From NCBI GenBank assembly GCA_965206165.1, contig OZ242194.1, forward strand, positions 3,586,719-3,650,718: a stretch of DNA of 64,000 bases, read 5' to 3'. The stretch comes from Acidimicrobiales bacterium (GTDB taxonomy: Bacteria > Actinomycetota > Acidimicrobiia > Acidimicrobiales > CATQHL01). The position numbers were made by a program, and so were the translations under genes. A model generated the notes under the pieces. The model saw only the letters and a list, made by a program, of their open reading frames with translations. It was not told the DNA's origin and searched no databases. Every line of letters starts with the position of its first letter. Position 1 is the stretch's first letter. Of this stretch, positions 6,638-38,793 are shown in pieces.

Positions 6638-6777
6638 TGCAATCCGCCTGTCGCCGACCTGCCGGCGCCACGCATCGAGCGCGGCCGGCGCGCCCTCTTC
6701 CGAGCGGCTTTCGTACACGCTGTACGATGCGAGCTTTCGAGGGTTCCAGCCACCTTGAGCCACGTTAGGGGTTGACG

Positions 6778-7785
6778 ATGAAAGCCGTACAGGTGACGGC
6801 GCCGGGCCGCTTGGCATACACCGATGTCCCTGAGCCGGCAACGCCGGCGGATGCTCCGGAGGCACTTGTACGGATCGACATGGTGGGGATCTGCGGCACC
6901 GACCTCAAGATCTTCTCCGGTGGGGTGCCCGTCGACTACCCGCGCATCATGGGGCACGAAATGGTCGGCGAGGTGGTCGACGCCGGCGAATCAGGCTTGG
7001 CGGTGGGGCACCGAGTCCTCATCGATCCCGCCATCTCCTGCAGGAGCTGCGCCCTGTGCCGCCAGGGACGCTCGAACCTGTGCCTGCGCGGAGGACTGCT
7101 CGGTCGGGACGCCGACGGGGTGTTCGCCGAGTTCGCCGTGGCCCCGGCCGACCGGCTGCTGAGCATTCCCGACGATGTCCGGGGGCCCGCCGCGGGCCTG
7201 CTGCAAGTCGCGGGAACGTGCGTGCATGCCCAGCGGGCGGCGCCGGTGAGCGTCGGCGATGTCGCCGTCGTCGTCGGGCTGGGTGTGAGTGGTCTCATCT
7301 TCACCCAACTCCTGCGGGCGGCAGGTGCGACCGTGATCGGGATCACACGCTCCGCTTCGAAGCGGGAGCTGGCGACCCGCCTCGGGGCGACGGCAGCGGC
7401 GGCCCCCGAGAACGCTGCAGCGCTGATCGCCGAATTGACCGACGGCATGGGCGCCGACCTGGCCGTCGAAGCTGTCGGTACCGAGGCGACAATCGGCCTT
7501 GCCATCGAGTCCACTCGCATCGGCGGCGAGGTCCTCGTGTTCGGCACCGTCACGGGAGGCGGCACCGGCCTTCCCTACTACCAGATGTACTTCAAGGAAC
7601 TCACGTTGCGAAACCCGAGAGCCGCCATCGCCGACGACTACGCCCGTGCCATCGAACTGGCCGCATCAGGCGTGCTCGATCTCGAACCGATCGTGACCGA
7701 CCAACTCCACCTGTCCGAAGCGCCCCGTGCGTTCGAGCGGGTGCAGGAGTCGGATTCCTTGAAGGTGCTCATGGCTGTCGGCTGA
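6778..7785 (+). CDS. Zn-dependent medium-chain alcohol/polyol dehydrogenase
   Basis: ORF 6772-7785. The ATG at 6778 follows AGGGG. Motifs: GHEMVGEVV (catalytic Zn), CRSCALCRQGRSNLC (structural Zn Cys cluster) and VVGLGVSGL (Rossmann). Confidence 0.85.
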   Translation: MKAVQVTAPGRLAYTDVPEPATPADAPEALVRIDMVGICGTDLKIFSGGVPVDYPRIMGHEMVGEVVDAGESGLAVGHRVLIDPAISCRSCALCRQGRSNLCLRGGLLGRDADGVFAEFAVAPADRLLSIPDDVRGPAAGLLQVAGTCVHAQRAAPVSVGDVAVVVGLGVSGLIFTQLLRAAGATVIGITRSASKRELATRLGATAAAAPENAAALIAELTDGMGADLAVEAVGTEATIGLAIESTRIGGEVLVFGTVTGGGTGLPYYQMYFKELTLRNPRAAIADDYARAIELAASGVLDLEPIVTDQLHLSEAPRAFERVQESDSLKVLMAVG

Positions 7786-7821
7786 TCAAGCCGGACAGAC
7801 CAAAATCCGAGAGGGGCGAAG

Positions 7822-8601
7822 GTGGCCGGTATCCAGATCGATGTCGAGGGGAGCGGGCCGCCGCTGCTCCTCGTGCATTCCCTGCTCACCGATGCGCGCG
7901 CCTTCGATCCGGTGGCGGCACGCTTCGGCGCCCGCTACGGCGTCCACCGGGCCTGGCTACCCGGATTCGGCAACTCCGAGCCGCTCGCAGGCGAATCTCT
8001 GAGCATCTTCGACATCGCCGGTGCGGTGGCCGACGCCATGGCCGAAGCCGGAATTGCCGGCAAGGGCGCCACCGTGCTCGGCAATGGCTTCGGTGCTTTC
8101 GTCTGCGTGGCACTGGCCATCGAGCACGGCCACGAGTTCGGGCCACTGATCGTGGCCAACGGCGGAGCGGCCTTCTCGCCGGAGCGCCGCGCCCCCTTCA
8201 CCGCCATGAGCGACCTCGTGACCCGGTCGGGCATGGACGCAGTGGTCGACACCGCGGTTCGCCGCATCTTCACCGCGGACTATCTGGCCGCGCACCCCGA
8301 GGCTGTCGACGAGCGGGGCCGGGTGCTCCGGGCCGTCCACCCTGGAGCCTTCGCCGCCTCCTGCCGCGCCCTGCGCGACATGGATCTGCGCCCCCACGTG
8401 GGGGCCATCAGGAACCCGACGCTGATCATCGGGGGAGGCTCCGACGTGACCACACCGCCGGAGATGTCCGCGGAGCTGGCCGCGGCGGTTCCCGGCTCCG
8501 AGTTGGTCGTGATCGAGAACTGCGGGCACTGCCCACCGCTGGAGCGCCCCGACGCGTTCGCCGACGCCGTGGAGGACTTTCTCGACCGGACGCTGCCCTA
8601 G
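7822..8601 (+). CDS. Alpha/beta-hydrolase fold protein (enol-lactonase-like) with a non-canonical nucleophile elbow
   Basis: 259-aa ORF with PPLLLVHSLL and a C-terminal ENCGHCPPLERP (His). The nucleophile elbow reads GNGFG instead of GxSxG. Confidence 0.75.
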   Translation: MAGIQIDVEGSGPPLLLVHSLLTDARAFDPVAARFGARYGVHRAWLPGFGNSEPLAGESLSIFDIAGAVADAMAEAGIAGKGATVLGNGFGAFVCVALAIEHGHEFGPLIVANGGAAFSPERRAPFTAMSDLVTRSGMDAVVDTAVRRIFTADYLAAHPEAVDERGRVLRAVHPGAFAASCRALRDMDLRPHVGAIRNPTLIIGGGSDVTTPPEMSAELAAAVPGSELVVIENCGHCPPLERPDAFADAVEDFLDRTLP

Positions 8602-12617: not shown

Positions 12618-12782
12618 CTAAGGGCGGCGATCCACCAAGTCGATTGGTCGGAGTCCGGCGTCAGTCAAGGCGTACATCCAGGGCCCAACCGGCGCACTTC
12701 GCGCGCAGTCGGTGAGTCGGGACCAGTGTTTCTCGACGATCTCGAGGCTGTGTTGAAGAACTCCGCGGCCATCGTGCTTCAC
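12618..12782 (-). CDS. Small ORF (54 aa) translationally coupled to the DUF433-like gene; possible toxin-partner remnant
   Basis: Not in the ORF track (<60 aa). Manual translation: VKHDGRGVLQHSLEIVEKHWSRLTDCARSAPVGPWMYALTDAGLRPIDLVDRRP. Its GTG overlaps the upstream TGA (GTGA at 12779-12782). The only functional hint is its position next to a DUF433-type gene. Confidence 0.25.
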   Translation of the reverse strand: MKHDGRGVLQHSLEIVEKHWSRLTDCARSAPVGPWMYALTDAGLRPIDLVDRRP

Positions 12783-13513
12783 GCCGCTATCGAACGCTGT
12801 TGCTCCTCATAGGCCACCGCGGCGCGGACCTCGTGCTCCGGTAGGTCGTAACCCTCCGAAATGACCTTGAGAGGCTCGCCGGCGTCGTACAACTCCCAGA
12901 GCCGATCTGTCGACACCCCCCGCACCGAAGGCCGGCCGAAGCGAACCAGCGGGTCGATAACCACTGACGACGCACGTCCGGCCGGGCGAAGCCGGCTGGC
13001 GGTCTCCTGCGAATCAAACTCGACCTTGCGGAAGAACCGTTCCGCCTCGTCGGCAAGAAGGATCGTCTGCCCAGACGGGACAACGATCGCGAGCGGCTGC
13101 GGGAGGTCGTTCTGGCGTTGCAGCATCAGCACGAGATCGCGTCCGTGCACAAACGGCCTGGCCGTTGCAAGGGGGTACAGAGTCTGATACTCGTCGTGAA
13201 GCGCAGCAATCACGGGACGCAGCCGCTGCAGCGGTACACCCTTGCGCCGGTACTCGCGCAGATAGCCGAGTTCGACGAACTCCCCCCAGGTGACGATGCC
13301 GTCACCTGTGTGTTCAGGGCGTATCACTGGCTGGTAGAAGGTGCCACCCCGCTCGTACCCATCAAGCCAGGCGCGCACGCGGCCAACGCCGAGACCGAGC
13401 AGGCCAGCCGCCTCGCCGACTCCGTAGAGGGGCCTCTCAAGAATCGAAACAGAGGTACTCGTCAGACTGCTCCTTCGGGATGCGAAACGCTGGGCGCTGT
13501 TCACAGAGTACAC
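12779..13513 (-). CDS. DUF433-type antitoxin-like protein with an N-terminal HTH-like region
   Basis: 244-aa ORF. The C-terminus DPLVRFGRPSVRGVSTDRLWELYDAGEPLKVISEGYDLPEHEVRAAVAYE matches my recollection of the DUF433 pattern. The N-terminal GVGEAAGLLGLGVGRVRAWL resembles a MerR-like HTH. The exact start is uncertain. Confidence 0.55.
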   Translation of the reverse strand: MYSVNSAQRFASRRSSLTSTSVSILERPLYGVGEAAGLLGLGVGRVRAWLDGYERGGTFYQPVIRPEHTGDGIVTWGEFVELGYLREYRRKGVPLQRLRPVIAALHDEYQTLYPLATARPFVHGRDLVLMLQRQNDLPQPLAIVVPSGQTILLADEAERFFRKVEFDSQETASRLRPAGRASSVVIDPLVRFGRPSVRGVSTDRLWELYDAGEPLKVISEGYDLPEHEVRAAVAYEEQQRSIAA

Positions 13514-13648
13514 AGGAGACTCCAGCGTCCAGAGCCGCGAACCTCCATGGGAATGCGATGCCGGGAGTCCAGCGGAGCGGAACTCCGACAGGCGCTGAGC
13601 GTCAGTCTCCTTGGTACATCGCCGACCGTTACCAAGTAAACTTCGAAT

Positions 13649-13888
13649 GTGGTCGGTATGCAGGAGTTTCGGGTGTCATCATCGGGGCAGATGTCGCTCC
13701 CGGCTGCTGCGCGCCGCCGCTGGGGCCTGGACGGCGGCGGACCCGTCGATGTGCTGGACCTGGGCTTCGGCGTCCTGACCGTCCCCAGAGGCGAGGGACG
13801 GCAACTGCTCAACGACCTGCTCGGTCGCGACGACCATGCCGCCTTCGTCCGGTCGCTGGCCGACGATCCGGACCTCGCCACCACGTGA
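13649..13888 (+). CDS. AbrB/MazE/SpoVT-family antitoxin
   Basis: 79-aa ORF (the ATG at 13658 is also possible). VSSSGQMSLPAAARRRWGL is a typical swapped-hairpin AbrB-type DNA-binding motif. GTGA overlap with the downstream ORF. Confidence 0.65.
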   Translation: MVGMQEFRVSSSGQMSLPAAARRRWGLDGGGPVDVLDLGFGVLTVPRGEGRQLLNDLLGRDDHAAFVRSLADDPDLATT

Positions 13889-14322
13889 CCCGAGCAGTCC
13901 TCGACGACCATCTTCTCCGGGACTTGCTTACCGGAAGCACCGGTCCCGGGCTCGAAGGCGTGCTAGCGGATCACGAGCCAGCGACGACGAACCTGTACTT
14001 CCTGCGCCTGTGCAAGAGCGTCTTGTCCGCGCGGGGCGGGGCTCTGACTGGTTCGCTACGACCCGACGTGCGCCGCGCGCTTGGCCGGCAGCTCATCGCG
14101 CTCCCCGGCGGGATCGAGGTGATACCGATGCGTGATCTCGCATTCCGCATGGCCGAGCTGTGCGCCGCCTACCGCCTGTCGAATCTCGGCGCCGAAGCCG
14201 TGGCCGCTGCCGAGAAGCTCGGTGGGCCGCTTTGCGTCTGGATCGGGGACGACGGTCCCCACATCCGGGCCGCCATGGAGGGAATCGGCGAGTACCAGAC
14301 GATCTCCCCGAGGAGCCCGTAG
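13885..14322 (+). CDS. PIN-like toxin candidate, partner of the AbrB-type antitoxin
   Basis: C-terminal 145 aa of ORF 13480-14322, from the GTG at 13885 (overlaps the antitoxin stop). VLDDHLLRDLL at the N-terminus and LSNLGAEAVAAAEKLGGPLCVWIGDD resemble PIN motifs, but I cannot place all of the acidic residues. Confidence 0.45.
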   Translation: MTRAVLDDHLLRDLLTGSTGPGLEGVLADHEPATTNLYFLRLCKSVLSARGGALTGSLRPDVRRALGRQLIALPGGIEVIPMRDLAFRMAELCAAYRLSNLGAEAVAAAEKLGGPLCVWIGDDGPHIRAAMEGIGEYQTISPRSP

Positions 14323-14368: not shown

Positions 14369-14980
14369 TCAGCCGACGAGGGCGGAGCGGAGGAAGCGCA
14401 GGAGTTCGCGTCGACGGACGACGGTGTCGCGGAGGGTGGGCTCCATGCCGACGGTGCGCAGCACCTCCACCTCGGTGGCCACACCCATCACCGTGGAGTA
14501 GGTGGACACCAGCAAAAGCCGCGGATCGCAGCGGCGGATCCGCCCCGACTCCATGCCGGCCTCCAGGAAGGCGCGGGCACGCTCAACGAGCGGCTCGAAG
14601 CCGGCGCGCACTCTGTCCATCCAGGGTGGACCCAGACGGGTGACCTCGCGCAGCAGTCCGAGCATCTCGGGGCGACGCACAGCGAACCGGAACACCGTCC
14701 GCACAACCGCTTCCACCCCCGCCCATGCGTCCGGCGGCTCGCCATCGTCCCCGGTCGGCGGAGGCGACGCCTCGACGGCGAGCAGGAGCGCCGTAGTCAG
14801 ACCGGTCACCGTCCGGTCGATCACCGCCTCCATCAGAGCTTCCTTCGAACCGAAGTAGTACAGGACCGTCTGCTTGCGAATCCCGCTGTCCCGGGCAATC
14901 GAATCCAGCGAGACGGCGTCGTAGCCGCGCCCTCCGAAGGACACCAGCGCCGCCTCGAGTATCCGGTCCCGCGTCTGCAC
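14369..14980 (-). CDS. TetR/AcrR family transcriptional regulator
   Basis: 203-aa ORF with a GTG start. N-terminal HTH: RDRILEAALVSFGGRGYDAVSLDSIARDSGIRKQTVLYYFGSKEAL. Divergent from the reductase operon. Confidence 0.9.
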   Translation of the reverse strand: MQTRDRILEAALVSFGGRGYDAVSLDSIARDSGIRKQTVLYYFGSKEALMEAVIDRTVTGLTTALLLAVEASPPPTGDDGEPPDAWAGVEAVVRTVFRFAVRRPEMLGLLREVTRLGPPWMDRVRAGFEPLVERARAFLEAGMESGRIRRCDPRLLLVSTYSTVMGVATEVEVLRTVGMEPTLRDTVVRRRELLRFLRSALVG

Positions 14981-15009
14981 CGCTTACCACCCTAGTTGAG
15001 CCCCCGGTT

Positions 15010-15094
15010 CTCTACCATCTGGTAGAGCGGCCCTAATCACCGGTCGCCTCAATCCATCCCTACCATGTGGTAGATGTCTCTACCACATGGTAGA
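15010..15094. promoter_or_regulatory. Three palindromic operator-like sites (consensus TCTACCA-NN-TGGTAGA)
   Basis: Read directly: CTCTACCATCTGGTAGAG (15010-15027), CTACCATGTGGTAG (15060-15073) and TCTACCACATGGTAGA (15079-15094). All lie between the tetR start (14980) and the ATG at 15104. Confidence 0.7.
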
Positions 15095-15103
15095 AAAAGG
15101 GGG

Positions 15104-17431
15104 ATGATCCCCGAAGCATTGGCTGGAAAGCGCATCGCCCTCACCGGTGCCACCGGATTCCTGGGCACCGCGCTGGTGGAGAAGCTGCTGCGGTCGGTCC
15201 CCGAATGCGAGTTGATCCTCCTGGTCAGACCGGGTCGCCGGGGTGCCACCGAGCGGATCCGCCGAGAGGTCCTCCGCAACGATGCCTTCGACCGCCTCCG
15301 CTCCGCCCTCGGGAACGACGGCTTCGGAACCGAGACCGCCCAACGCCTCCAAGCCGTCGCAGCCGACGTGAGCATGGACGGTCTGGGGTGCGACCCCGAG
15401 GGCCGAGACCTACTGGCGGGCTGCGACATCGTCATCCACGCGGCCGCGGCCGTTGCCTTCGACAACCCGTTCGACCTCGCCGTGGAGACCAACCTCCTCG
15501 GGCCGATACGCCTCGTCGAGTTGCTGACCGAGCTCGGCACGACGCCCCATCTGGTGTCGGTTTCGACGGCGTACGTGGCCGGCAACCGCCGGGGGTTCGC
15601 ACCTGAGGAACTCCTCTCCGAGAGCCACTTCGCCGTGTCCGTCGACTGGCGCGCCGAGGCGGCCTCTGTACAACGCAGCCGCGACTCCATCGAGGACGAG
15701 AGCCGCACACCCGAGCGCCTCGCCGAGTTTGCGAAGGAGGCGGACGCCGAACTCGGTGCCGCCGGCACGGCCGCCCTCACTGCCAAGCGCGAACAGATAC
15801 GCCACCGCTGGGTGCGCACCCGCCTGGTGGACGTGGGTCGGGCCCGGTCGGGCTCCCTCGGCTTTCCCGATTCGTACGGTCTCACCAAGGCCCTTGCCGA
15901 GACGGCCCTGAGCGAGACGCGCGGCAGCATCCCACTGACAATCGTGCGACCGTCGATCATCGAGTCGGCGCTGGCCGAGCCGTACCCCGGCTGGATCCGC
16001 GGGTTCCGCATGGCCGAACCGATCATCATCTCCTACGCACGTGGGTTGCTGCAGGACTTCCCCGGAATCCCCGAGGGCACCCTCGACGTGATCCCCGTCG
16101 ACCAGGTTGCCGCCGCCGTCTGCGCGGTGGCCGCCGACGGGCCGGCCGCCGACGGTCGGCCGAATGTCGTGCAGGTGGCGTCCGGTGCGGTCAACCCGTT
16201 CCGGTTCGCGGATCTGCATGACTGGTCGCACGCCTGGTTCTGCGAGCACCCCATCTACGACGAGCGCAACCAGCCGATCAGCCCGCCGCGCTGGTCGTAT
16301 CCCAGCCGCAAGCGTGTCCAGAGCCACCTGGACCGTGCCAGGCGCACCTTGCTCGTCGGTGAGAAGGTTCTCAGCGCCCTACCGGTGCGGGGCGAGAAGG
16401 CGGGCATCGCCGCTGGATTCGCCGAGAAGCGCGCCCTGGTCGAGCGGGCGCTCAGCTACGTCGAGCTGTACAGCGGCTACGTGGAGTGCCAGGCCACGTT
16501 CGGGGTCGAGAAGCTCCTGGCACTGGGGGAGTCCCTCACACCCGAGGATCGGAAGAACTTCGACTTCGACCCGCGGCGGATCGACTGGCACACCTACGTG
16601 ACCGAGATCCACCTGCCCTCGGTGATCGCCCAAGGTCGTCTCAAGACCGCGCCCGCCAACCGGACCGGCGCGGACCGCGACACCCGGCGCCGGACGCAGG
16701 TGCTGTCCCCCCAGCGGCACATGGCCGCCTTCGACCTCGAGAACACTCTGGTCGCGTCGAACGTGGTGGCGTCGTGGGGTTGGCTGGCAACGCGGCGGAT
16801 GCCAGCGGCCGACAGGGCCCGGCTGGTGGCCCGCACCCTCGCCGAGGCGCCGAAGCTACTGGACCTCGACCGTCACGACCGCAGCGACTTCCTCCGCTAC
16901 TTCTACCGCCGCTTCGCCGGAGCGCCCGTCGAACAGGTGGCCAACGACAGCTTCGAAATGTTCAGCGACCTGCTGTTGCGGCAGTCGTTCCCCGCCGCCA
17001 TCCGCCGGGTCCGCCACCACCGGGCACTCGGCCATCGCACCGTGCTCATCACGGGCGCCCTGGACTTCGTGATCGCTCCGTTCGCTCCCCTGTTCGACGA
17101 CATCGTCTGCTCCTCGCTCACCCGCACCCACAGCGGTGGGACTTACACCGGCCAGTTGGCGGAGGTGCCACCCACGGGCGAGAGTCGTGCCGAGGCGTTG
17201 CTGGACTATGCGGCCCGCGAAGGCCTGTCGCTCGCCGAATCCGTCGCCTACGCCGACTCCACGAGCGACCTGCCGATGCTCGAGGCGGTGGGCTTCCCGG
17301 TGGCGGTGAACCCCGAGACCAAGCTGGCAATGCTCGCCCGGCGTCGAGGCTGGCTCATCGAGAACTTCAAGCAGGCTCCCGGCGCACCGCGCAGGCTGCT
17401 GCCCCTGGCCGAACCGGTGGTGCGGCGATGA
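15104..17431 (+). CDS. Fusion protein: fatty acyl-CoA reductase-type NAD(P)-binding domain + HAD-IB superfamily hydrolase domain
   Basis: ORF 15074-17431. I prefer the ATG at 15104, which follows AAGGGGG and lies downstream of the operators. N-terminal domain: LTGATGFLGTALVEKLL and SYGLTKALAE (YxxxK). C-terminal domain: AAFDLENTLV (HAD motif I with Glu at the second acidic position) and YADSTSDLPMLEAVGFPVAVNP (motif IV). Confidence 0.8.
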   Translation: MIPEALAGKRIALTGATGFLGTALVEKLLRSVPECELILLVRPGRRGATERIRREVLRNDAFDRLRSALGNDGFGTETAQRLQAVAADVSMDGLGCDPEGRDLLAGCDIVIHAAAAVAFDNPFDLAVETNLLGPIRLVELLTELGTTPHLVSVSTAYVAGNRRGFAPEELLSESHFAVSVDWRAEAASVQRSRDSIEDESRTPERLAEFAKEADAELGAAGTAALTAKREQIRHRWVRTRLVDVGRARSGSLGFPDSYGLTKALAETALSETRGSIPLTIVRPSIIESALAEPYPGWIRGFRMAEPIIISYARGLLQDFPGIPEGTLDVIPVDQVAAAVCAVAADGPAADGRPNVVQVASGAVNPFRFADLHDWSHAWFCEHPIYDERNQPISPPRWSYPSRKRVQSHLDRARRTLLVGEKVLSALPVRGEKAGIAAGFAEKRALVERALSYVELYSGYVECQATFGVEKLLALGESLTPEDRKNFDFDPRRIDWHTYVTEIHLPSVIAQGRLKTAPANRTGADRDTRRRTQVLSPQRHMAAFDLENTLVASNVVASWGWLATRRMPAADRARLVARTLAEAPKLLDLDRHDRSDFLRYFYRRFAGAPVEQVANDSFEMFSDLLLRQSFPAAIRRVRHHRALGHRTVLITGALDFVIAPFAPLFDDIVCSSLTRTHSGGTYTGQLAEVPPTGESRAEALLDYAAREGLSLAESVAYADSTSDLPMLEAVGFPVAVNPETKLAMLARRRGWLIENFKQAPGAPRRLLPLAEPVVRR

Positions 17432-19044
17432 GCCCCCGCACGGCGTCGCCCACACCCCGCCCGGGATTCGTGCTGGAGGTGGAGCGCTCGACCCCGCCGA
17501 TGCTGTTCCACCACGGTGAAGGGTTCCGCATGGAACGGCTGCCGGCGGGGCGCTCCCGCGTGCTCTACCCGCCCAGCCCGCTGGAGGGCCTGCCGGATCC
17601 TGCCGGCGCGATACGCCACGCTCTCGAGCACCCCATCGACAGCGAACCGCTGCCGGCGCTGCTGCGCCCGGGGATGCGTCTGACGATCGCCTTCGACGAC
17701 ATCTCCCTGCCACTGCCCCCCATGCAGCGCCCCGATGTGCGCCAGCAGGTGATCGAGACCGTGCTGGACATGGCGGCCGCCGCGGGGGTGGACGACGTGC
17801 ACATCATCGCCGCGCTGGCGCTGCACCGCCGCATGACCGAGGCCGAGCTGCGCCACGCCGTCGGCGACCGGGTGTACGACGCCTTCGCCCCGTCGCGGCG
17901 GCTCTACAACCACGACGCCGAGGACCCCGACGGCATGGTCGTCCTCGGAGCGACCGACCACGGCGAGGAGGTGCAGATCAGCCGGCGGGCCGCCGAGAGC
18001 GACCTCGTCGTGTACGTCAACATCAACCTCGTGGCCATGGACGGGGGCTGGAAGAGCACCGCCACCGGGCTTTCCGGCTACCAGGGGCTGCGCCACCACC
18101 ACAACGTGGCCACGATGTTGAAGTCGCGGTCGTTCATGGATCAGCGCAGTTCGGAACTGCACCACTCCAACTGGCGCCAGGGGGCGGTGCTGCGCGACAG
18201 CGGCCCCCGCATCTTCCAGATCGAGACCACGGTGAACAACAACAGCTTCGGCACCAGCGGGTCGCTGTCGATGCTGCAGAAACGGGAGTGGGAGTGGACA
18301 GCGCGTGACCGGGCGTCGTTCGTGGCGATGCAGGCGGGCCTCGGGGTGATGTCACCGGCGGGCCGGCGGCGGGCGTTCCAGTCCTGGCGGGCGCCGTACG
18401 CCATGACCTCGGTGCAGGCCGGCGAAGTGGAGGCGGTCCACAAGATCACGACGGAGAACGTCTACCGCCAGCAACTCGTGGCAGTCCAGGGCCAGACCGA
18501 CGTGCTGACCATGGGACTCCCCTACATCTGCCCCTACAACGTCAACTCCATCATGAACCCGATCCTGGTCATGTGCCTGGGGCTCGGGTACTTCTTCAAC
18601 CTCTACCGGGGCCGACCGCTGGTGCGCCCCGGCGGGGTGGTCATCATGACGCACCCCACGCCGTGGGAATTCCACCCCGTGCACCACCCCAGCTACATCG
18701 ACTTCTTCGAGCAGGTGCTGGCCGACACCACCGACCCCGCCGAGATCGAAGCCCGCTACGAGGTGCAGTACGCCAACGACGAGTGGTACCGGCACCTGTA
18801 CCGCACGTCCTACGCCTACCACGGCGTGCATCCCTTCTACATGTGGTACTGGGGCGCCCACGCCATGTCGTACCTGGGACGGATCATCATCGTGGGGGGC
18901 GACAGAGCCGCCGTGCGGCGCATGGGGTTCGCGCCGGCCTCCAGCCTCAGCGACGCCCTGGAGATCGCCGGTGACGTGGTGGGGAGCCATCCGACCATCA
19001 CGCACCTCCACCTGCCACCGTTCGTCATGGCCGACGTGTCGTGA
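17428..19044 (+). CDS. LarA-like (lactate racemase N-terminal / DUF2088) domain protein, 538 aa
   Basis: C-terminal part of ORF 16486-19044, from the ATG at 17428 (ATGA overlap with the upstream stop). The region DLVVYVNINLVAMDGGWKSTATGLSGYQGLRHHH resembles the LarA SGGxKS...H block. Confidence 0.6.
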   Translation: MSPRTASPTPRPGFVLEVERSTPPMLFHHGEGFRMERLPAGRSRVLYPPSPLEGLPDPAGAIRHALEHPIDSEPLPALLRPGMRLTIAFDDISLPLPPMQRPDVRQQVIETVLDMAAAAGVDDVHIIAALALHRRMTEAELRHAVGDRVYDAFAPSRRLYNHDAEDPDGMVVLGATDHGEEVQISRRAAESDLVVYVNINLVAMDGGWKSTATGLSGYQGLRHHHNVATMLKSRSFMDQRSSELHHSNWRQGAVLRDSGPRIFQIETTVNNNSFGTSGSLSMLQKREWEWTARDRASFVAMQAGLGVMSPAGRRRAFQSWRAPYAMTSVQAGEVEAVHKITTENVYRQQLVAVQGQTDVLTMGLPYICPYNVNSIMNPILVMCLGLGYFFNLYRGRPLVRPGGVVIMTHPTPWEFHPVHHPSYIDFFEQVLADTTDPAEIEARYEVQYANDEWYRHLYRTSYAYHGVHPFYMWYWGAHAMSYLGRIIIVGGDRAAVRRMGFAPASSLSDALEIAGDVVGSHPTITHLHLPPFVMADVS

Positions 19045-19946
19045 AGCGCAACCCGGTGGTCGCCTTGGCGCGGGGCCTGGATTTCCCGTGGCGCGCCGCA
19101 ACCGCCCCCCTCTCGGCACGGGCGAGCCACGCCCCGGCGACCCTCGGCGCCGCCTTCGAGACCGACTGGGCGCGCCGCTGGCCGGCTCGCATGGTCCGCG
19201 CCTCGCTGATCGAGTTGCTCTGGCGCCCGGTTGTGGCCGCAGCCGCCCAGCCCACCCGGTTGGGGCTGGACCGTCTCGCGGCACTCGACGGGGAGCCGGT
19301 CATCTTCGCCGCCAACCACCGCAGCCACCTCGACACTCCGCTGCTGCTGACGTCGATTCCCGAACCGTGGCGCCACACGCTGATCGTTGCCGCCGCCGCC
19401 GATTACTTCTTCCCGACCCGCCCCAAGGGTGTCGCCTCTGCGTTGTTCATGGGCGCCGTGCCGGTGGAACGGGCACGGGTGGGGCGTGACTCGGCCCAGG
19501 ACGTCGCCACCCTGGTCCGTCGCGGCTGGAGCCTCCTGCTGTACCCCGAGGGCGGGCGCAGCACCGACGGCTGGGGCCAGCCGTTCCGTGGCGGGGCCGC
19601 CTACCTGGCGCACCGCTGCGACGTGCCCGTCGTCCCGGTCTACCTGGCCGGCACCCGGGGCGTGCTGCCGAAGGGCCGCTTCGTGCCCAAGCCGGGGCGG
19701 ACACTGGTGGTGTTCGGCGACCCGGTCCGACCCGACCCCAGCGAGCGGATCCGGACCCTCGGCGAGCGCATCGAGGCCGCAGTCGCCGGCCTGGCCGACG
19801 AGGTCACGACGAACTGGTGGCAGGCACGCCAGCGTGCCCACGCCGGCACGACTCCCTCACTGACCGGCCCCGACGCCGCCTCGTGGCGGCGCGCCTGGGC
19901 ACTGTCGCACCGCAGCAGGCCGCGAAAGCGTCGCTGGCCCCGCTGA
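19041..19946 (+). CDS. 1-acyl-sn-glycerol-3-phosphate (lysophospholipid) acyltransferase family protein
   Basis: 301-aa ORF. Its GTG start overlaps the upstream stop (GTGA). Motifs: HX4D as ANHRSHLDTPLL, and LLLYPEGGRS (EGTR-like block). Confidence 0.85.
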   Translation: MKRNPVVALARGLDFPWRAATAPLSARASHAPATLGAAFETDWARRWPARMVRASLIELLWRPVVAAAAQPTRLGLDRLAALDGEPVIFAANHRSHLDTPLLLTSIPEPWRHTLIVAAAADYFFPTRPKGVASALFMGAVPVERARVGRDSAQDVATLVRRGWSLLLYPEGGRSTDGWGQPFRGGAAYLAHRCDVPVVPVYLAGTRGVLPKGRFVPKPGRTLVVFGDPVRPDPSERIRTLGERIEAAVAGLADEVTTNWWQARQRAHAGTTPSLTGPDAASWRRAWALSHRSRPRKRRWPR

Positions 19947-20020: not shown

Positions 20021-22297
20021 ATGGCCGTTCACGCCACCACCCCCATCTCCCTGATCGAAGCCGCCTACGGCCGCCTGGCCGCGGCGGTCCGCTCGGCCCG
20101 ACCCCGTGCCGGCCGCCCGCTGACGGCGGCGGAGAAGATTCTCATCGGCCATCTCGACGATCCGTCCGGCCCGCTGCCCGAGCGCGGCCGCAGCTATGTC
20201 GACTTCTGCCCCGACCGCGTGGCGATGCAGGACGCCACCGCTCAGATGGCCTGGCTGCAGTTCATGACCGCCGGGCTGTCGGAGGTGGCAGCGCCCACCA
20301 CCGTGCACTGCGACCACCTCATCCAGGCCCGGGTGGACTCGCGCCGCGACCTGCTGGCCGCGCTGGAGAACCACGAGGAGGTGTACGACTTCTTGGAGTC
20401 GGTGAGCGCCCGCTACGGCGCCGGTTTCTGGAAGCCGGGCTCGGGGATCATCCATCAGGTCGTGCTGGAGAACTACGCCTTCCCGGGTGGGATGATGATC
20501 GGCACCGACAGCCACACTCCCAACGCCGGCGGGCTGGGCATGGTGGCGGTGGGCGTGGGCGGCGCGGACGCCGTCGATGTCATGACCGGATTCCCCTGGA
20601 ACGTGCGCTGGCCCGAGTTCATCGGCGTGCGCCTCACCGGCCGCCTCTCGGGCTGGTCGGCGCCGAAGGACGTCATCCTGAAGGTGGCCGACCTGCTCAC
20701 GGTGGCCGGTGGGACAGGTTCCATCGTGGAGTACTTCGGCCCGGGAGCCGAGACGATCTCCGCCACCGGCAAGGCCACGATCTGCAACATGGGCGCCGAG
20801 ATCGGCGCCACGACCTCTCTGTTCGCCTACGACGAGTCGATGGCCCGCTACCTGAAGGCCACCGGGCGCGAGCAGGTGGCCGCCGCAGCCGACGCCGTCG
20901 CCGAGCATCTCCGGCCCGACGACGGGGTGCTCGCCGACCCCGAGCGTTGCTACGACTCGGTGATTGAGATCGACCTGTCAACGCTGGCGCCGCACATCAA
21001 CGGCCCCCACTCCCCCGACCGGGCCCGTCCCGTGTCGGATCTGGGCGCCGAGGCGGCCGCCGAAGGGTGGCCCATGGAGATCTCCGCAGCGCTGGTGGGG
21101 TCGTGCACCAACTCCTCCTACGAGGACATCACGAGGGCGGCCAGCATCGTCGCCGGCGCGGTGGCCCGCGGGCTGACGGTGAAGGCGCCGCTGCTGGTCA
21201 CGCCGGGTTCGGAGCAGATCCGTGCCACGATCGCCCGTGACGGGCTGCTCGGGATCTTCGAGGAGGCCGGGGCGACGGTTCTGGCCAACGCCTGCGGGCC
21301 GTGCATCGGCCAGTGGTCGCGCAGCGACGTGGCCGAGGGCGACGTCAACGTGATCGTCACCAGCTACAACCGCAACTTCCCCAAGCGCAACGACGGGCTG
21401 GCCTCCACGCTGGCTTTCGTCACCTCACCGGAGGTGGTCGTGGCCCTTGCGCTCGCGGGTCGCGTGGACTTCGACCCCATCAGCGGCACGCTGCGCAACG
21501 ACGACGGCGAAGAGGTGCACCTCCCGGCGCCGATCGGGGTGGAACTTCCGCCCGACGGCTTCGATCCCGGCGACGCGGGATTCGTGTCGCCCCCGTCGGA
21601 GGGCGAGCGCGCCGCCATCGATGTGCGGATTTCCCCTGCAAGCAAGCGCCTGCAGGAGTTGCAGCCGTTCGCCCCCTGGGACGGGCGGGACTTCGAGAAC
21701 CTGCCGGTGCTGCTGAAAGCCGCCGGCAAGTGCACCACCGACCACATCTCCGCCGCCGGGCCGTGGCTGCGCTACCGCGGTCACCTCGAGAACATCAGCG
21801 GCAACCTGTTCGCCGGGGCGGTGAACGCCTTCGGCGGGGCGGTCGGCGAGGGGAAGGACCAGACCGACGGGCAGGTCCGCCCCTACCCCGAGATCGCCCG
21901 GCGCTACCACGAGGCCGGCTGGTCGTGGGTGGCCGTGGGCGACTCGAACTACGGCGAGGGCTCCTCCCGTGAACATGCCGCAATGGAACCCCGCTTCCGG
22001 GGATGCACGGCCGTCATCGTGCGCTCCTTCGCCCGCATCGCCGAGACCAACCTCAAGAAGCAGGGCGTGCTGGCGCTCACGTTCGCCGACCCCGCCGACT
22101 ACGACGGTGTCGGTGAGGACGACCGCATCTCGATCCGGGGATTGGCCGACCTGGCGCCGGGCCGGCCGGTACGGGTCGAGGTCTCCCGCCCCGACGGCTC
22201 GACGGCGGCCTTCGACACCCGCCACACGCTCTCCGCCGACCAGATCGACTGGTTCCGCGCCGGTAGCGCCCTCAACATCATCCGCTCCCGCCTCTGA
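20021..22297 (+). CDS. acn: Aconitate hydratase, short mitochondrial-type
   Basis: 758-aa ORF with [53 protein letters not shown] and [10 protein letters not shown] (Fe-S Cys ligands). Confidence 0.9.
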
Positions 22298-22596: not shown

Positions 22597-25311
22597 CTAC
22601 AGGTCGCCCCAGCAGGTGACGGTGCCGTCGGTGTGAAGCCCGCAGGTGTGTCGGGCTCCCACGGTGACGCCGCTGAAGTCCCCGCCGGGGGCGTCGGTTT
22701 GGCGGTTGCGGTTGTTGCCCCAGCATTCGATGGTGGCGCTGGCGCGTATCCCGCAGGTGTGGTGGTCGCCGGCGACCACGGTGCTGAACTGCCCGTCGGG
22801 CGCGAGCGTCTGGCCCTCGTTGTTGTCGCCCCAGCACGCCACGGAGCCGTTGGCGTGCAACGCGCAGGTGTGGTTGCCGCCGGCGCTGATGGCGCTGAAG
22901 GTTCTCGGTGGTGCGTCGGTCTGGCCGTTGTCGTTGGCGCCCCAACAGGTAATCGTGCCATCGGTGCGCAGGCCGCATGAGTGCTTGCGACTATGCGCAA
23001 CTGCCTCGAATCGTTCGCCCGTCGTCGCTCCGTCGGCGAGGGCCAGCAACAGCCGAGGGTATTCCCCCGAGGCTGTCGTGCTGAACCAGCACGCCAGGCT
23101 GCCGTTGGCGCGCAGCCCGCACGGCAAGTTCGGCCCCGCGCTGATGGCGCGGAAGCGCCCCTCCGGCTCGCCGAGGAGGCCGAGGAGATCGGTGCCCCAG
23201 CAGACCACGGTGGCGTCGCTGCGCAGGCCGCACGTGTGGCCGGCGGCGGCGTCGATGGCGCTGAAGTGCCCGCCGGGCGCGTCGGCCTGACCGAACTCGT
23301 CGCTACCCCAACAGGCGACGGTCCCCTCCACGCGCAATCCGCATGCGTGGGCGCCGCCGGTGGTGATGGCGCTGAAGTGCCCGCCGGGCGCGTCGGCCTG
23401 ACCCGCGTCGTTGTCGCCCCAGCAGGCGACCGTGTCATCGCTGCGTAACCCGCAGGCGAAGTCGGGGCCCGACACCAGCGCCGAGAAACTCCCGTCGGGG
23501 TTGAACGTCCGCACCGGCCCGACCGTGGCGGGATCCTCCCAAGCGACGCCGGGTGGCGATTCCACGGCGTAGGCCGTCCAGCAGGCAACCGAGCCGTCGG
23601 CACGGATGCCGCACGAATGCACCAACCCGGCGGATACGGCGCTGAACAGCCCGTCAGGGGCCTCGGCCTGGCCGTAGCGGTCAGCGCCCCAACACTCCAG
23701 TATCTTCTCGACGCGCACCCCGCAGGCATGCCCAGGACCACTGGACACAGCGCTGAAGCGCCCCGCCGGCGCGTCGATCACGCCATTTGCCGCCTCGCCC
23801 CAGCACTCGACGACGCCGGTGAGGCGCACGCCGCACGAATAGCCCGAGCCCGCATCGACGGCACTGAACCGCCCCTCCGGCGCGTCGATCGCCCCTCCGA
23901 GATCCGACTCCCAGCAGTCGACCGTCCCCTCGACGCGCAGGCCGCACACATGGGAACGCCCCGCCGAGACGGCACTGAACGGACCGCCGGGACCGCCTCG
24001 CTCAGGCTTACGGGTCTGGTTGTTCCAGCAGTAGACCCTTCCGTCGGGGCGCAGACCGCAGGACGACTCTCCACCCACCGAAATACTGCTGAACCGCCCC
24101 GGCGGCGCGTCGCGCAGGTACGGAGTCGTCAGATCCCACAACCAGCAAGCCGCAGACCCATCGGCTCGCACACCGCACGCATGATCAGATCCGGCGTCCA
24201 CGGTGCTGAACGCGCCCGGCGGCGTGTACAACGGACCGATGCCAATGTCGCCCCAACAGGCAACCTCGCCGCTCGCACCTTGACCACACGAGTGGTGCTC
24301 ACCGGCCGAGACGGCGATGAACGCGCCAGCCGACACCTCGATCGGCGCCGCATAGTTCCTTCCCCAACAAACAATCGTCCCCCCGGCCCGCAGCCCGCAC
24401 GACTGCGCGAGTCCGACTGAGACCGCGCTGAACCGACCCCCCGGCGCATCGATCATCCTCCTCGCCTGCTCCTCGACCGACGGCAGCGGCAGCTGGTCCC
24501 GCTCCTCGCCGGCGCCGCCCCAGCAAGTCACAGCGCCATCGGTGCGCACGCCACAGGAATGCACGAAACCCGCAGTGACCGCGCTGAACCGACCCTCGGG
24601 CACATCCAACTGGCCGTGACTGTTGTTCCCCCAACACGACACTGTGCCGTCGCTGCGGGTACCACACGAATGCGCCGCACCGGCAGAGACCGCGCTATAC
24701 CGGCCCTCGGGCACATCCAACTGGCCATGAGTGTTGTCCCCCCAACACGACGCTGTGCCGTCGCTGCGGGTACCACACGAATGCGCCGCACCGGCAGCCA
24801 CCGCACTGAACCGACCCCCCGGCGCGTCGGCCTGACCCTTACTGTCGTCGCCCCAACAAACGACTGCTCCATCAGTCCGCACACCACACGAATGCGCGAA
24901 ACCCGCCGCGACCGCGCTGAACCGACCCCCCGGCGCGTCGGCCTGACCCTTACTGTCGTCGCCCCAACAAACGACTGCTCCATCGATCCGCACACCACAC
25001 GAATGCGCGAAACCCGCCGCGACCGCGCTGAACCGACCCCCGGGTGCGTCGGCTCGGCCATCGACGTTGGCGCCCCAACAAGCGACGGTTCCATCGGTCC
25101 GCACACCACACGAATGCGCGGCGCCAGAAGACACCGCAGCGAAAGGAGCGCTCCCAGCGTCGGGCCCCTCATGCCCCGCGTCTCCGCCGCCGCAACCGGC
25201 GGAAACCGCCAACGCGCCAACCAACACGACAGCAACCACCTTCCTGGATAACCGGGGAATGCGCCGGGCCCGACGACTCACAGACTCGCCGCAACGCTCA
25301 GAGACGCTCAA
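22597..25311 (-). CDS. RCC1-like repeat (beta-propeller) lipoprotein, about 22 repeats
   Basis: 904-aa ORF. Signal plus lipobox LAVSAGCGG. I count 22 recurrences of the motif F..V.aG..HsCG.R.DG.v.CWG.n..GQ.d.P.G. Confidence 0.85.
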   Translation of the reverse strand: MSVSERCGESVSRRARRIPRLSRKVVAVVLVGALAVSAGCGGGDAGHEGPDAGSAPFAAVSSGAAHSCGVRTDGTVACWGANVDGRADAPGGRFSAVAAGFAHSCGVRIDGAVVCWGDDSKGQADAPGGRFSAVAAGFAHSCGVRTDGAVVCWGDDSKGQADAPGGRFSAVAAGAAHSCGTRSDGTASCWGDNTHGQLDVPEGRYSAVSAGAAHSCGTRSDGTVSCWGNNSHGQLDVPEGRFSAVTAGFVHSCGVRTDGAVTCWGGAGEERDQLPLPSVEEQARRMIDAPGGRFSAVSVGLAQSCGLRAGGTIVCWGRNYAAPIEVSAGAFIAVSAGEHHSCGQGASGEVACWGDIGIGPLYTPPGAFSTVDAGSDHACGVRADGSAACWLWDLTTPYLRDAPPGRFSSISVGGESSCGLRPDGRVYCWNNQTRKPERGGPGGPFSAVSAGRSHVCGLRVEGTVDCWESDLGGAIDAPEGRFSAVDAGSGYSCGVRLTGVVECWGEAANGVIDAPAGRFSAVSSGPGHACGVRVEKILECWGADRYGQAEAPDGLFSAVSAGLVHSCGIRADGSVACWTAYAVESPPGVAWEDPATVGPVRTFNPDGSFSALVSGPDFACGLRSDDTVACWGDNDAGQADAPGGHFSAITTGGAHACGLRVEGTVACWGSDEFGQADAPGGHFSAIDAAAGHTCGLRSDATVVCWGTDLLGLLGEPEGRFRAISAGPNLPCGLRANGSLACWFSTTASGEYPRLLLALADGATTGERFEAVAHSRKHSCGLRTDGTITCWGANDNGQTDAPPRTFSAISAGGNHTCALHANGSVACWGDNNEGQTLAPDGQFSTVVAGDHHTCGIRASATIECWGNNRNRQTDAPGGDFSGVTVGARHTCGLHTDGTVTCWGDL
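24584..25138. repeat. Tandem 111-bp (37-codon) units within the RCC1-like gene; two near-identical pairs plus a diverged fifth unit
   Basis: Units start at 24584, 24695, 24806, 24917 and 25028, each marked by CTGAACCGACC. Units 24806-24916 and 24917-25027 differ at only a few bases (ATCAGTCC vs ATCGATCC). Units 24584-24694 and 24695-24805 form a second near-identical pair. Confidence 0.85.
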
Positions 25312-25632
25312 ACGCCGCTAGCCCTTCCCCACAAAGTCCCGCGCCATCGCCCCAAGCAGAACAAGAACAGGGGTTCACCGCTCGCAGCGCGCGGCGACCG
25401 GCGGCGGGCGCAAGAGTCGGCCTCGTCGCCACCATGGAGGGAACCCGAGCGGTTGCCGCCGGCGAGGATGTCCCCCCATTGGGCGGTCCAAGCCCGCCGC
25501 CGACGCGATGACAACCGAGGCCGGCGCGAACCCATCGGCCAACAACTCGACCGGATCGCCGACGAACTGCTTCTCACACGGCGACGAAAACCTGCACAGA
25601 CCACGCGCTCCGCAGTCGCGACTGGGAGCACC

Positions 25633-38494: not shown

Positions 38495-38793
38495 GGAAGG
38501 ACACCTCCGCTTCGGGTTTCTTCGATTGTTGCTTCGGGAAACCGGCAACTCATCGATCCGAACTTTATGTAGATATTTTGAACCGATTACCGCATTGACC
38601 GCAGATAATCACCATTGCGGAACATAAGTATTATCGATCTTTCGAGAAACAGCATATCTATCTTCTTCTGGAGACATCGGTCGGAGAGTCTCGCGACATG
38701 GCCAGGGGGGCGTCACCCACGGCGGGTGCGCTCGACGCCGTGGAGCCCGCAGGCACCCGCCGATCAAACCGATACGCCGCCTAACGTGAGGGC

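Follow-up and report, generated by a model that had tools for sequence, protein, structure and literature searches.

What does a bacterium make with an operon that joins a fatty-acyl-CoA reductase (FAR), a HAD domain, a homologue of lactate racemase (LarA) and a glycerolipid acyltransferase? Three genes of this kind lie side by side in a 64,000-nucleotide stretch of DNA, referred to here as the window, from an Acidimicrobiales bacterium (assembly GCA_965206165.1, contig OZ242194.1, positions 3,586,719 to 3,650,718; GC about 69%). The features listed in a preliminary description of this operon, which was made from the nucleotide sequence, are all present, and its interpretation is partly supported. 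The comparisons described below suggest that the operon is a compact actinobacterial form of the elb-type ether-lipid pathway, and that it probably directs the synthesis of 1-O-alkyl-glycerol (alkyl/acyl) lipids. The operon and the gene that is divergent from it consist of the following parts:

14369..14980, minus strand: tetR-family regulator of 203 amino acids (aa), divergent from the operon (TetR_N, E 6e-14)
15104..17431, plus strand: gene 1, FAR-HAD fusion (Pfam, NCBIfam), 775 aa from 15104 or 785 aa if the start is 15074
about 15140-16609, plus strand: FAR part of gene 1 (NAD_binding_4 and Sterile; Pfam/NCBIfam)
about 16724-17284, plus strand: HAD-IB part of gene 1, with motif I, DLENT, at 16733-16747
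17428..19044, plus strand: gene 2, LarA homologue of the ElbC / LarAH14-15-16 family, 538 aa (Lar_N, E 4e-39)
19041..19946, plus strand: gene 3, PlsC/AGPAT-type acyltransferase, 301 aa (Acyltransferase, E 2e-17); alternative start GTG 19056

Direct reading of the sequence shows that the three plus-strand genes overlap as the preliminary description had it, by an ATGA at 17428-17431 between gene 1 and gene 2 and by a GTGA at 19041-19044 between gene 2 and gene 3. Scans with profile hidden Markov models (HMMs) agree with its domain assignments (NAD_binding_4/Sterile, HAD, Lar_N and Acyltransferase), and all of its motifs are in place: TGATGFLG at 15143, YGLTK at 15875 and DLENT at 16733 in gene 1; GGWKS at 18043 in gene 2; and the HX4D motif, HRSHLD, at 19317 and EGGRS at 19548 in gene 3. 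Gene 1 matches NAD_binding_4 with an E-value of 1.6e-54, Sterile, and HAD with an E-value of 3.9e-27. Its residues 2-507 match PDB entry 7eoz, 'Fatty acyl-CoA reductase' (E 1.6e-61), and its HAD part scores 103.9 with TIGR01490, for which the cut-off is 98.3. Gene 3 matches the PlsC structure 5kym of the PDB (E 9e-12).

Relation of the operon to elb and similar loci

The elb operon of Myxococcus xanthus, described by Lorenzen et al. in 2014 according to the sections on elb in PMC9131029 and PMC13012113, comprises elbABCDE, which are MXAN_1531 to MXAN_1527 (PMC13012113). As elbD is MXAN_1528, elbC must be MXAN_1529, a member of group 15 of the LarA homologues (LarAH). The M. xanthus locus is arranged in the order SDR (ElbA), HAD (ElbB), Lar_N (ElbC), ElbD and SDR (ElbE), and ElbD is itself a chain of NAD_binding_4, Sterile, AMP-binding, PP-binding and Acyltransferase domains. 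Gene 2 is 50% identical to ElbC from end to end, over 525 residues. Within the elb operon, the FAR part of gene 1 finds its best match in the ElbD N-terminus (27% over 553 aa, E 4e-43), the HAD part in ElbB (35% over 220 aa, E 2e-36) and gene 3 in the C-terminal acyltransferase domain of ElbD (36% over 130 aa, E 2e-21). The FAR, HAD-IB, LarA-like and AGPAT-type modules of an elb cluster thus occur together in the window, and they are co-directional and tightly packed in both operons. The preliminary description had not recognised the combination as a known pathway. This has to be given up, because a homologous operon with a documented function exists in elbABCDE, and because the association of COG0204, COG0560, COG3320 and COG1063 is already found in Table S1 of Desguin et al. 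2020.

In the account of elb given in PMC9131029, disruption of elbD abolishes the alkyl and vinyl ether lipids and inactivation of elbE lowers them. The acyl-CoA synthetase (ACS) and acyl carrier protein (ACP) activities of ElbD have been shown in vitro, and iso-C15 aldehyde, with no fatty alcohol, is formed in dependence on ElbD. The alkyl-ether-forming steps are described there as uncharacterised, and ElbC is termed 'a protein of unknown function'. In the parts of the 2022 and 2026 treatments that deal with elb (PMC9131029, PMC13012113), ElbC is still without an assigned function. The window operon differs from elb in that its FAR is fused to the HAD domain, whereas in ElbD the FAR is fused to ACS, ACP and acyltransferase. 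In the window the acyltransferase is free-standing, ACS, ACP, ElbA and ElbE are missing, a divergent TetR with operators is present, and the HAD motif reads DLENT instead of DVDGT.

A second point of comparison is the chromosome of Rubrobacter radiotolerans (CP007514), in which plsY, a FAR-HAD fusion, a Zn-dependent alcohol dehydrogenase (Zn-ADH) and a LarA homologue follow one another in a row. Sinninghe Damste et al. are said to have noted, in 2023, a putative elb-like 1-O-alkyl-glycerol-phosphate operon in Rubrobacterales genomes. A passage of PMC10821996 that cites Sinninghe Damste et al. 2023 gives the proportion of ether-linked core lipids in Rubrobacterales as about 46%. Like the window, the R. 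radiotolerans operon combines a FAR-HAD fusion with a LarA homologue, and its host belongs to an order in which 1-O-alkyl ether lipids are documented to be abundant. The operon differs by plsY upstream instead of plsC downstream, by the Zn-ADH, by the DVDGT motif of its HAD domain and by the lack of a divergent tetR.

The arrangement of the window is conserved among its relatives. A scan with one genome per species yielded 599 relatives; the counts given here cover the best 80 of these 599, at 68-81% identity, all of them from Acidimicrobiales. The neighbouring genes of these 80 loci were identified by tblastn with the window proteins, and wider taxa were sampled through look-ups of exact proteins. 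The LarA homologue is present in all 80 loci, PlsC lies directly downstream of it in 79, and HAD and FAR are found upstream in 76 and 74, respectively, the missing HAD and FAR genes falling at contig ends. The single modules are thus kept in 74-80 of the 80 loci, and the triad of the preliminary description in about 75-79. No other gene of the cluster is as well conserved as the LarA homologue, whose mean identity over the related loci is 74.7% (HAD, 65.9%; FAR, 56.6%; PlsC, 54.1%; TetR, 49.7%); in 27 loci out of 27 it also exceeds the neighbouring aconitase in conservation. An exact copy of the gene 2 protein occurs on ENA metagenome contigs, its 96%-identity cluster includes NCBI proteins from metagenome-assembled genomes of Acidimicrobiia, and the closest match among species representatives, at 81%, comes from Candidatus Poriferisocius.

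In 43 of the 80 loci, and in R. radiotolerans, the FAR-HAD gene is separated from the LarA homologue by a Zn-dependent MDR alcohol dehydrogenase of about 400 aa. Its position in four loci, R. radiotolerans included, is:

locus L006, 8439-9983: Zn-ADH inserted at this point
locus L044, 8723-9997: the same
locus L083 (R. radiotolerans), 6720-7925: the same
locus L087, 3757-4962: the same

The window and 37 other loci have the minimal three-gene form. The only MDR of the window is a Zn alcohol dehydrogenase of 337 aa (6772-7785, plus strand), 7 kb upstream of the operon, which is 27% identical to the operon-type ADH; it appears to be unrelated and gives no sign of substituting for it. The other contexts have either the actinobacterial layout (ddl, FAR-HAD, ADH, LarAH, PlsC) or the elb layout. 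Judged by this comparison of gene orders, the invariant core is FAR, HAD and the LarA homologue, together with a glycerolipid acyltransferase.

The active site of the LarA homologue

By its Lar_N domain and its two-domain LarA fold, gene 2 belongs to the LarA superfamily. The first 19 matches of its AlphaFold2 model (pLDDT 90, pTM 0.90) in a Foldseek comparison with the PDB are all LarA-family or LarA-like chains, the best being 9q3k and 9q3j (TM 0.77/0.86), followed by the Isosphaera and Lactiplantibacillus LarA structures. In sequence, the nearest solved structures are the LarA homologues with a single catalytic histidine, 9q2u/9q3k and 9q3j (E 4e-28). Gene 2 scores 881.7 bits with NCBIfam NF052592 ('NPN-dependent hydroxyacid isomerase, LarAH14/15/16 family'; NPN is the nickel-pincer nucleotide), for which the cut-off is 740 and which is also matched above the cut-off by ElbC (848.8) and the R. 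radiotolerans protein (857.6). The words 'hydroxyacid isomerase' are a predicted name for the family. An HMMER alignment to the solved LarA structures gives the following map of the active site (window positions, plus strand):

17698: D91, equivalent to the ribose-binding Asp (cofactor binding)
17707: L94, at the position of LarA Arg75, replacing the carboxylate/phosphate binder
17824: H133, equivalent to LarA His108, the first catalytic His
18025: N200, equivalent to Asn185 of LarASp, replacing the catalytic His174
18052: K209, equivalent to LarA Lys184 and aligned with Lys195 of LarASp, the NPN tether
18100: H225, equivalent to LarA His200, 16 residues after K209, the Ni ligand

A set of 39 sequences from Actinobacteria and Myxococcota shows no variation at D91, H133, N200, K209 and H225, and position 94 is L, I or V in the table of Desguin et al. 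(PMC7583248). Both the tethering Lys and the nickel-binding His are thus found in gene 2. Of the two catalytic histidines used in racemisation one is missing, the His174 position being occupied by N200 in the HMMER alignment and by a gap in the Desguin table. L94 takes the place of Arg75, the residue through which LarA binds the carboxylate of its substrate and the phosphate of NPN. As K209, H225, H133, D91 and N200 are invariant but the equivalents of His174 and Arg75 are replaced, the cofactor pocket is predicted to be retained and the machinery for inverting alpha-hydroxy acids to be lost. It is only through its conserved residues that gene 2 is predicted to use NPN. The preliminary description had rightly noted the tethering Lys and a length about 100 aa greater than that of LarA (538 aa compared to 425-433 aa in the solved LarA chains). 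It had also proposed that the structure be predicted, and the model has the LarA fold, while the alignment retains the His and Lys residues of the cofactor site.

LarASp (9q3k/9q2u) and LarABw (9q3j; Gatreddi et al. 2025) resemble gene 2 in their length of about 500 aa, in the Asn at the position of the second His, and in the retention of the Lys, the Ni-binding His and the first His. They differ from it in sequence, with only about 21% identity, in having a Lys at the Arg75 position where gene 2 has Leu94, and in a genomic context of carbohydrate metabolism rather than lipids. The Lactiplantibacillus plantarum LarA has the two-domain fold too, and gene 2 contains counterparts of its NPN tether (Lys184), nickel ligand (His200) and catalytic base (His108). 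This LarA is 16% identical to gene 2, which lacks the equivalents of His174 and Arg75, is about 100 aa longer, has no larBCE nearby and stands in a context of lipid metabolism.

The group numbers 14, 15 and 16 come from Desguin et al. 2020 (PMC7583248). Group 14 includes Acidimicrobium, Ilumatobacter, Frankia, Kribbella, Nocardioides and Rubrobacter, group 15 consists of Myxococcota proteins, MXAN_1529 among them, and group 16 of degenerate paralogues without the Lys and His (PMC7583248). In the group 16 members FRAAL3757, Francci3_2278, MLP_28440 and HMPREF9154_1657, from Frankia, Microlunatus and Propionibacterium, the tethering Lys, the Ni-binding His and the catalytic His are partly or wholly lost and acyltransferase and HAD genes still adjoin; these paralogues may be pseudoenzymes. 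Table S1 of the same paper (PMC7583248) links group 14 to COG0204 (acyltransferase), COG0560 (HAD), COG1063 and COG3320 (thioester reductase), and group 15 to COG0451, COG0560 and COG1022; COG1063, a Zn-ADH, carries the wrong label 'phosphoserine phosphatase' there. The group 14 neighbourhood, which includes Franean1_4168, resembles the window in the NF052592 family, in the signature D-L-H-gap-gap-L/Q-K-H... and in COGs 0204, 0560 and 3320, and differs in COG1063, which is present in 7 of the 8 group 14 genomes and not in the window. Desguin et al. 2020 gave this neighbourhood no function and did not mention lipids (PMC7583248). In the nickel-pincer literature the subgroup is listed as one in which a catalytic His is missing and for which no substrate is known.

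A D-gluconate/mannonate 2-epimerase activity ascribed to 'LarAH15' (JBC 2024) was considered for transfer to this family and rejected, as it belongs to a Phytophthora enzyme of the GntE branch with the N-terminus MATLLFAE. This enzyme is not part of the Myxococcota group 15 of Desguin et al., so that the shared label is a clash of nomenclature. Group 15 (Desguin 2020) and the LarAH14/15/16 family of NCBIfam are the ones that contain the Myxococcota ElbC proteins, to which the activity of the JBC 2024 protein is not transferable.

A possible route to the ether bond and its alternatives

FAR-type enzymes convert acyl thioesters into aldehydes or alcohols, glycerol-phosphate backbones are the acyl acceptors of PlsC-type enzymes, and the NPN of LarA-type enzymes takes a hydride from a carbinol carbon and returns it. 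By combining these activities with the gene content of the operon, it is possible to propose a pathway in some detail. Judging by its family, the FAR domain of gene 1 would produce the fatty aldehyde or alcohol by reducing a fatty acyl thioester. The LarA homologue, with NPN tethered to it, would then take a hydride from the C2 hydroxyl of a glycerol-phosphate-type backbone and return it without inversion of the stereocentre, at or beside the ether-forming step. The single acid/base His fits a hydride that is not returned to the opposite face.

This second step might proceed in either of two ways. In route (a), glycerol-3-phosphate (G3P) and the fatty aldehyde would form a hemiacetal, and the C2 hydride parked on the NPN would reduce the oxocarbenium, giving 1-O-alkyl-dihydroxyacetone phosphate (1-O-alkyl-DHAP) and water. 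The reduction of C2 would follow, carried out by an SDR or ADH. Route (a) would account for both the requirement for ElbE and the aldehyde intermediate. In route (b), 1-acyl-G3P would be transiently oxidised, acyl/alkyl exchange would take place on the bound ketone, and the hydride would be returned. As no external reductant is needed, this route fits the minimal operon of the window. The PlsC-type enzyme would then acylate the backbone, either at sn-2 of the alkyl-G3P or by making the acyl precursor, and the HAD-IB domain might act on the phosphate ester of some intermediate or product.

In the eukaryotic/AGPS route (FAR1, GNPAT, AGPS, alkyl-DHAP reductase, AGPAT), a FAR likewise supplies the chain, acyltransferases likewise work on a three-carbon phosphate backbone, and a C2 carbonyl is central to the chemistry. 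The operon differs in having no AGPS flavoenzyme, for which the LarA homologue would be a non-homologous replacement. We infer a role for the LarA homologue in the ether step because it is the only unassigned catalyst in a pathway without AGPS and because its active site has a single His. In its full form, the proposal assigns the missing step of the aerobic bacterial pathway that works without AGPS, the formation of the ether bond, to ElbC and its actinobacterial counterpart, which would act through a tethered NPN, by which the C2 hydride of G3P is either transferred to the hemiacetal/oxocarbenium carbon derived from the aldehyde or returned after exchange on a transient ketone. It is put forward tentatively, being possible but doubtful. 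No explicit link of ElbC to LarA/DUF2088 or to the nickel-pincer cofactor was found in the literature searched, its absence elsewhere being unproven.

Several observations weigh against the assignment of the operon to an ether-lipid pathway or against the role proposed for gene 2. We know of no lipid data for Acidimicrobiia, nor for the source organism, and the chemistry proposed for the LarA homologue is conjecture. As the preliminary description had already observed for larB, larC and larE, the LarB, LarC and LarE families have no match among the approximately 45 open reading frames of the window; larBCE are absent as well near the homologues examined (six annotated homologous contexts). ElbD residues 561-1230, which contain ACS and ACP, have no tblastn match in the window, the ElbA and ElbE SDRs have none either, and the operon-type Zn-ADH of the 43 related loci is absent from it. 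The purified Frankia LarAH14 was inactive, and NPN loading was not reported for this protein. Pontiella has ElbD homologues and ether lipids were not detected in it, which shows that ElbD homologues do not always mean ether lipids. In the account of PMC9131029, the phenotype of the elbB insertion is put down to polarity, and ElbC has had no test of its own.

The HAD domain has to be counted among these points too, since its motif I is not the canonical DxDxT. In DLENT, which had been correctly singled out in the preliminary description, a Glu occupies the D+2 position. The variant is not confined to the window: all 72 related Acidimicrobiales loci in which the motif was found have FDLENT, while Myxococcus ElbB and Rubrobacter have the canonical FDVDGT. 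DLENT is thus a change specific to this lineage but strictly conserved within it. Enolase-phosphatase-type HADs also have a Glu at D+2. The HAD domain of gene 1 may be catalytically active.

Ether lipids might also be made by the operon while the LarA homologue isomerises the backbone, as a one-way C2 epimerase or as a redox isomerase of the G3P/DHAP type acting on glycerol phosphate or alkyl-glycerol phosphate, the ether itself being made by another component or by a housekeeping enzyme. The cofactor residues kept in gene 2 are consistent with this, as is the suggestion of Gatreddi et al. that single-His LarA homologues may be unidirectional epimerases. Moreover, the stereochemistry of the Rubrobacter ether lipids has yet to be assigned (PMC10821996), and TG-1 of M. 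xanthus is drawn as rac-1,2-diacyl-3-alkyl-glycerol (PMC9131029). However, the minimal three-gene operon offers no other candidate for making the ether, and inversion is mechanistically awkward without a second acid/base residue, which makes this explanation unlikely. It is quite improbable that the operon serves the synthesis of fatty alcohols, wax esters or other neutral storage lipids, or the detoxification of fatty aldehydes, with the LarA homologue acting independently of NPN as a scaffold, a lipid-binding or a regulatory subunit. A FAR combined with an acyltransferase does follow the logic of wax-ester synthesis, the window has no larBCE within its 64 kb, the protein is named 'transcriptional regulator' in some Myxococcus records, and the Lys and His are gone from the group 16 paralogues. 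Yet K209, H225, H133 and D91 are invariant in two phyla and the gene is the most conserved of its cluster, which is hard to reconcile with a non-catalytic role; the substrates of PlsC-type enzymes are glycerol backbones and not fatty alcohols, and the elbD phenotype concerns ether lipids.

The preliminary description had favoured the racemisation or epimerisation of a 2-hydroxy acid or hydroxyacyl group, leading to an unusual hydroxyacyl or stereo-inverted glycerolipid. Membership in the LarA superfamily, the NCBIfam family name and the fact that every LarA-family reaction characterised to date is a racemisation or epimerisation of hydroxy acids all speak for it. The active site does not, with Asn200 in place of the second catalytic His and Leu94 in place of the carboxylate-binding Arg75, and the purified Frankia LarAH14, supplied with NPN, was negative in all seven assays of hydroxy-acid racemase or epimerase activity (PMC7583248). 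In addition, the lipids connected with the homologous elb operon are alkyl ethers and not hydroxyacyl lipids, and the gluconate epimerase called 'LarAH15' in 2024 is another protein in spite of its label. A hydroxy-acid racemase was therefore rejected on Asn200, Leu94 and the negative Frankia assays, and the hydroxyacyl explanation as a whole is very improbable. What stands of the unusual glycerolipid envisaged earlier is the alkyl product, which had been among its guesses, and the regulated lipid operon; the inversion of a hydroxy acid is unlikely.

Regulation, surroundings and significance

The earlier reading of a tightly packed lipid operon associated with a TetR was right, and the three operators opposite the divergent tetR gene are confirmed as exact palindromes:

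15012..15025: operator O1, CTACCATCTGGTAG, exact palindrome, the nearest to the tetR start, at 32 nt from it
15060..15073: operator O2, CTACCATGTGGTAG, exact palindrome
15080..15093: operator O3, CTACCACATGGTAG, exact palindrome, ending 10 nt before the likely gene 1 start at 15104

The palindrome CTACCAnnTGGTAG occurs in three exact copies, at 15012, 15060 and 15080, where 0.02 would be expected by chance in 64 kb, and it has no further match in the window with one mismatch allowed. A divergent tetR homologue of 35-62% identity is present in 55 of the 80 related loci (tblastn with the window proteins). Of these 55 loci, 46 have the motif (C/T)TACCAnnTGGTA(G/A) 5' of the FAR gene; the 19 loci with FAR but no tetR all lack it there, and elsewhere in the related loci it is almost absent. 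This conservation amounts to a phylogenetic footprint, so that the predicted operators are supported by both statistics and phylogeny. A divergent TetR_N helix-turn-helix regulator with palindromes in the intergenic region is the arrangement of a TetR-controlled operon, in which binding is predicted. From the geometry and the conservation of the operators it is likely that TetR sits on the three palindromes, which span the region from tetR to the gene 1 start, and represses the operon until a ligand, possibly a lipid or an acyl-CoA, is bound. The pair of TetR and operator is a handle for induction studies.

The most likely start of gene 1 is ATG 15104 and not 15074. Gene callers have chosen it on identical ENA contigs, and a purine-rich AAAAAGGGGG stretch and operator O3 lie just 5' of it. 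The ENA calls for gene 3 start at 19041 or 19056. Scans for sigma-70 promoters and intrinsic terminators around the operon and before the aconitase gave no informative sites. The aconitase gene (20021-22297) follows immediately 3' of the operon, no terminator was detected between the two, and transcription may read through from the operon into acn. As an aconitase gene lies downstream in only 34 of the 80 related loci, at a variable distance, it is not counted as a member of the system. On the other side, the interval between ddl and tetR holds a DUF433/HTH gene (12779-13513, minus strand) and an unannotated open reading frame of 280 aa (13480-14322, plus strand). They resemble an insertion, possibly toxin-antitoxin-like, because the FAR-HAD gene of locus L087 comes directly after ddl.

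Farther downstream, a 904-aa protein with 13 RCC1 repeats (22597-25311, minus strand) stands beside a 2137-aa protein (25633-32046, minus strand) with RTX repeats and GDSL lipase, Big_9, cadherin-like and fn3 domains. GC is lower in this stretch, 22597-32046 (0.60-0.69), and the GC and AT skews are strong; the two may be secreted or adhesion proteins of a host-associated lifestyle. They are followed by a HipA-family kinase toxin gene (34062-35486, minus strand; HipA_C and Couple_hipA domains) and by a divergent glyoxylate-shunt pair of an unusually long isocitrate lyase (833 aa; 36107-38608, minus strand) and malate synthase G (38785-40980, plus strand). At 57428-61370 a second TetR (TetR_C_24, a strong match) is divergent from the genes for methylmalonyl-CoA mutase (large and B12-binding subunits) and MeaB, after which come P450 and SDR genes.

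The formation of alkyl ethers without AGPS in aerobic bacteria has been a standing question since the description of elb in 2014. Joining this question to the orphan nickel-pincer subgroup provides a concrete, testable candidate for the ether-forming step. If the proposal is true, this would be the first LarA-family reaction beyond the racemisation of hydroxy acids and the first nickel-dependent step in the synthesis of membrane lipids. Screens in the lipid literature use only ElbD, sometimes with ElbB and ElbE, and environmental surveys with ElbD as the marker may miss the three-gene form, which has no ACS or ACP and a FAR with only 27% identity to the N-terminus of ElbD. This bears on the assignment of monoalkyl glycerol ethers to their sources in sponges, soils and water columns. 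On the same proposal, the Acidimicrobiia, sponge symbionts included, would be overlooked producers of ether lipids that ElbD-based screens have missed.

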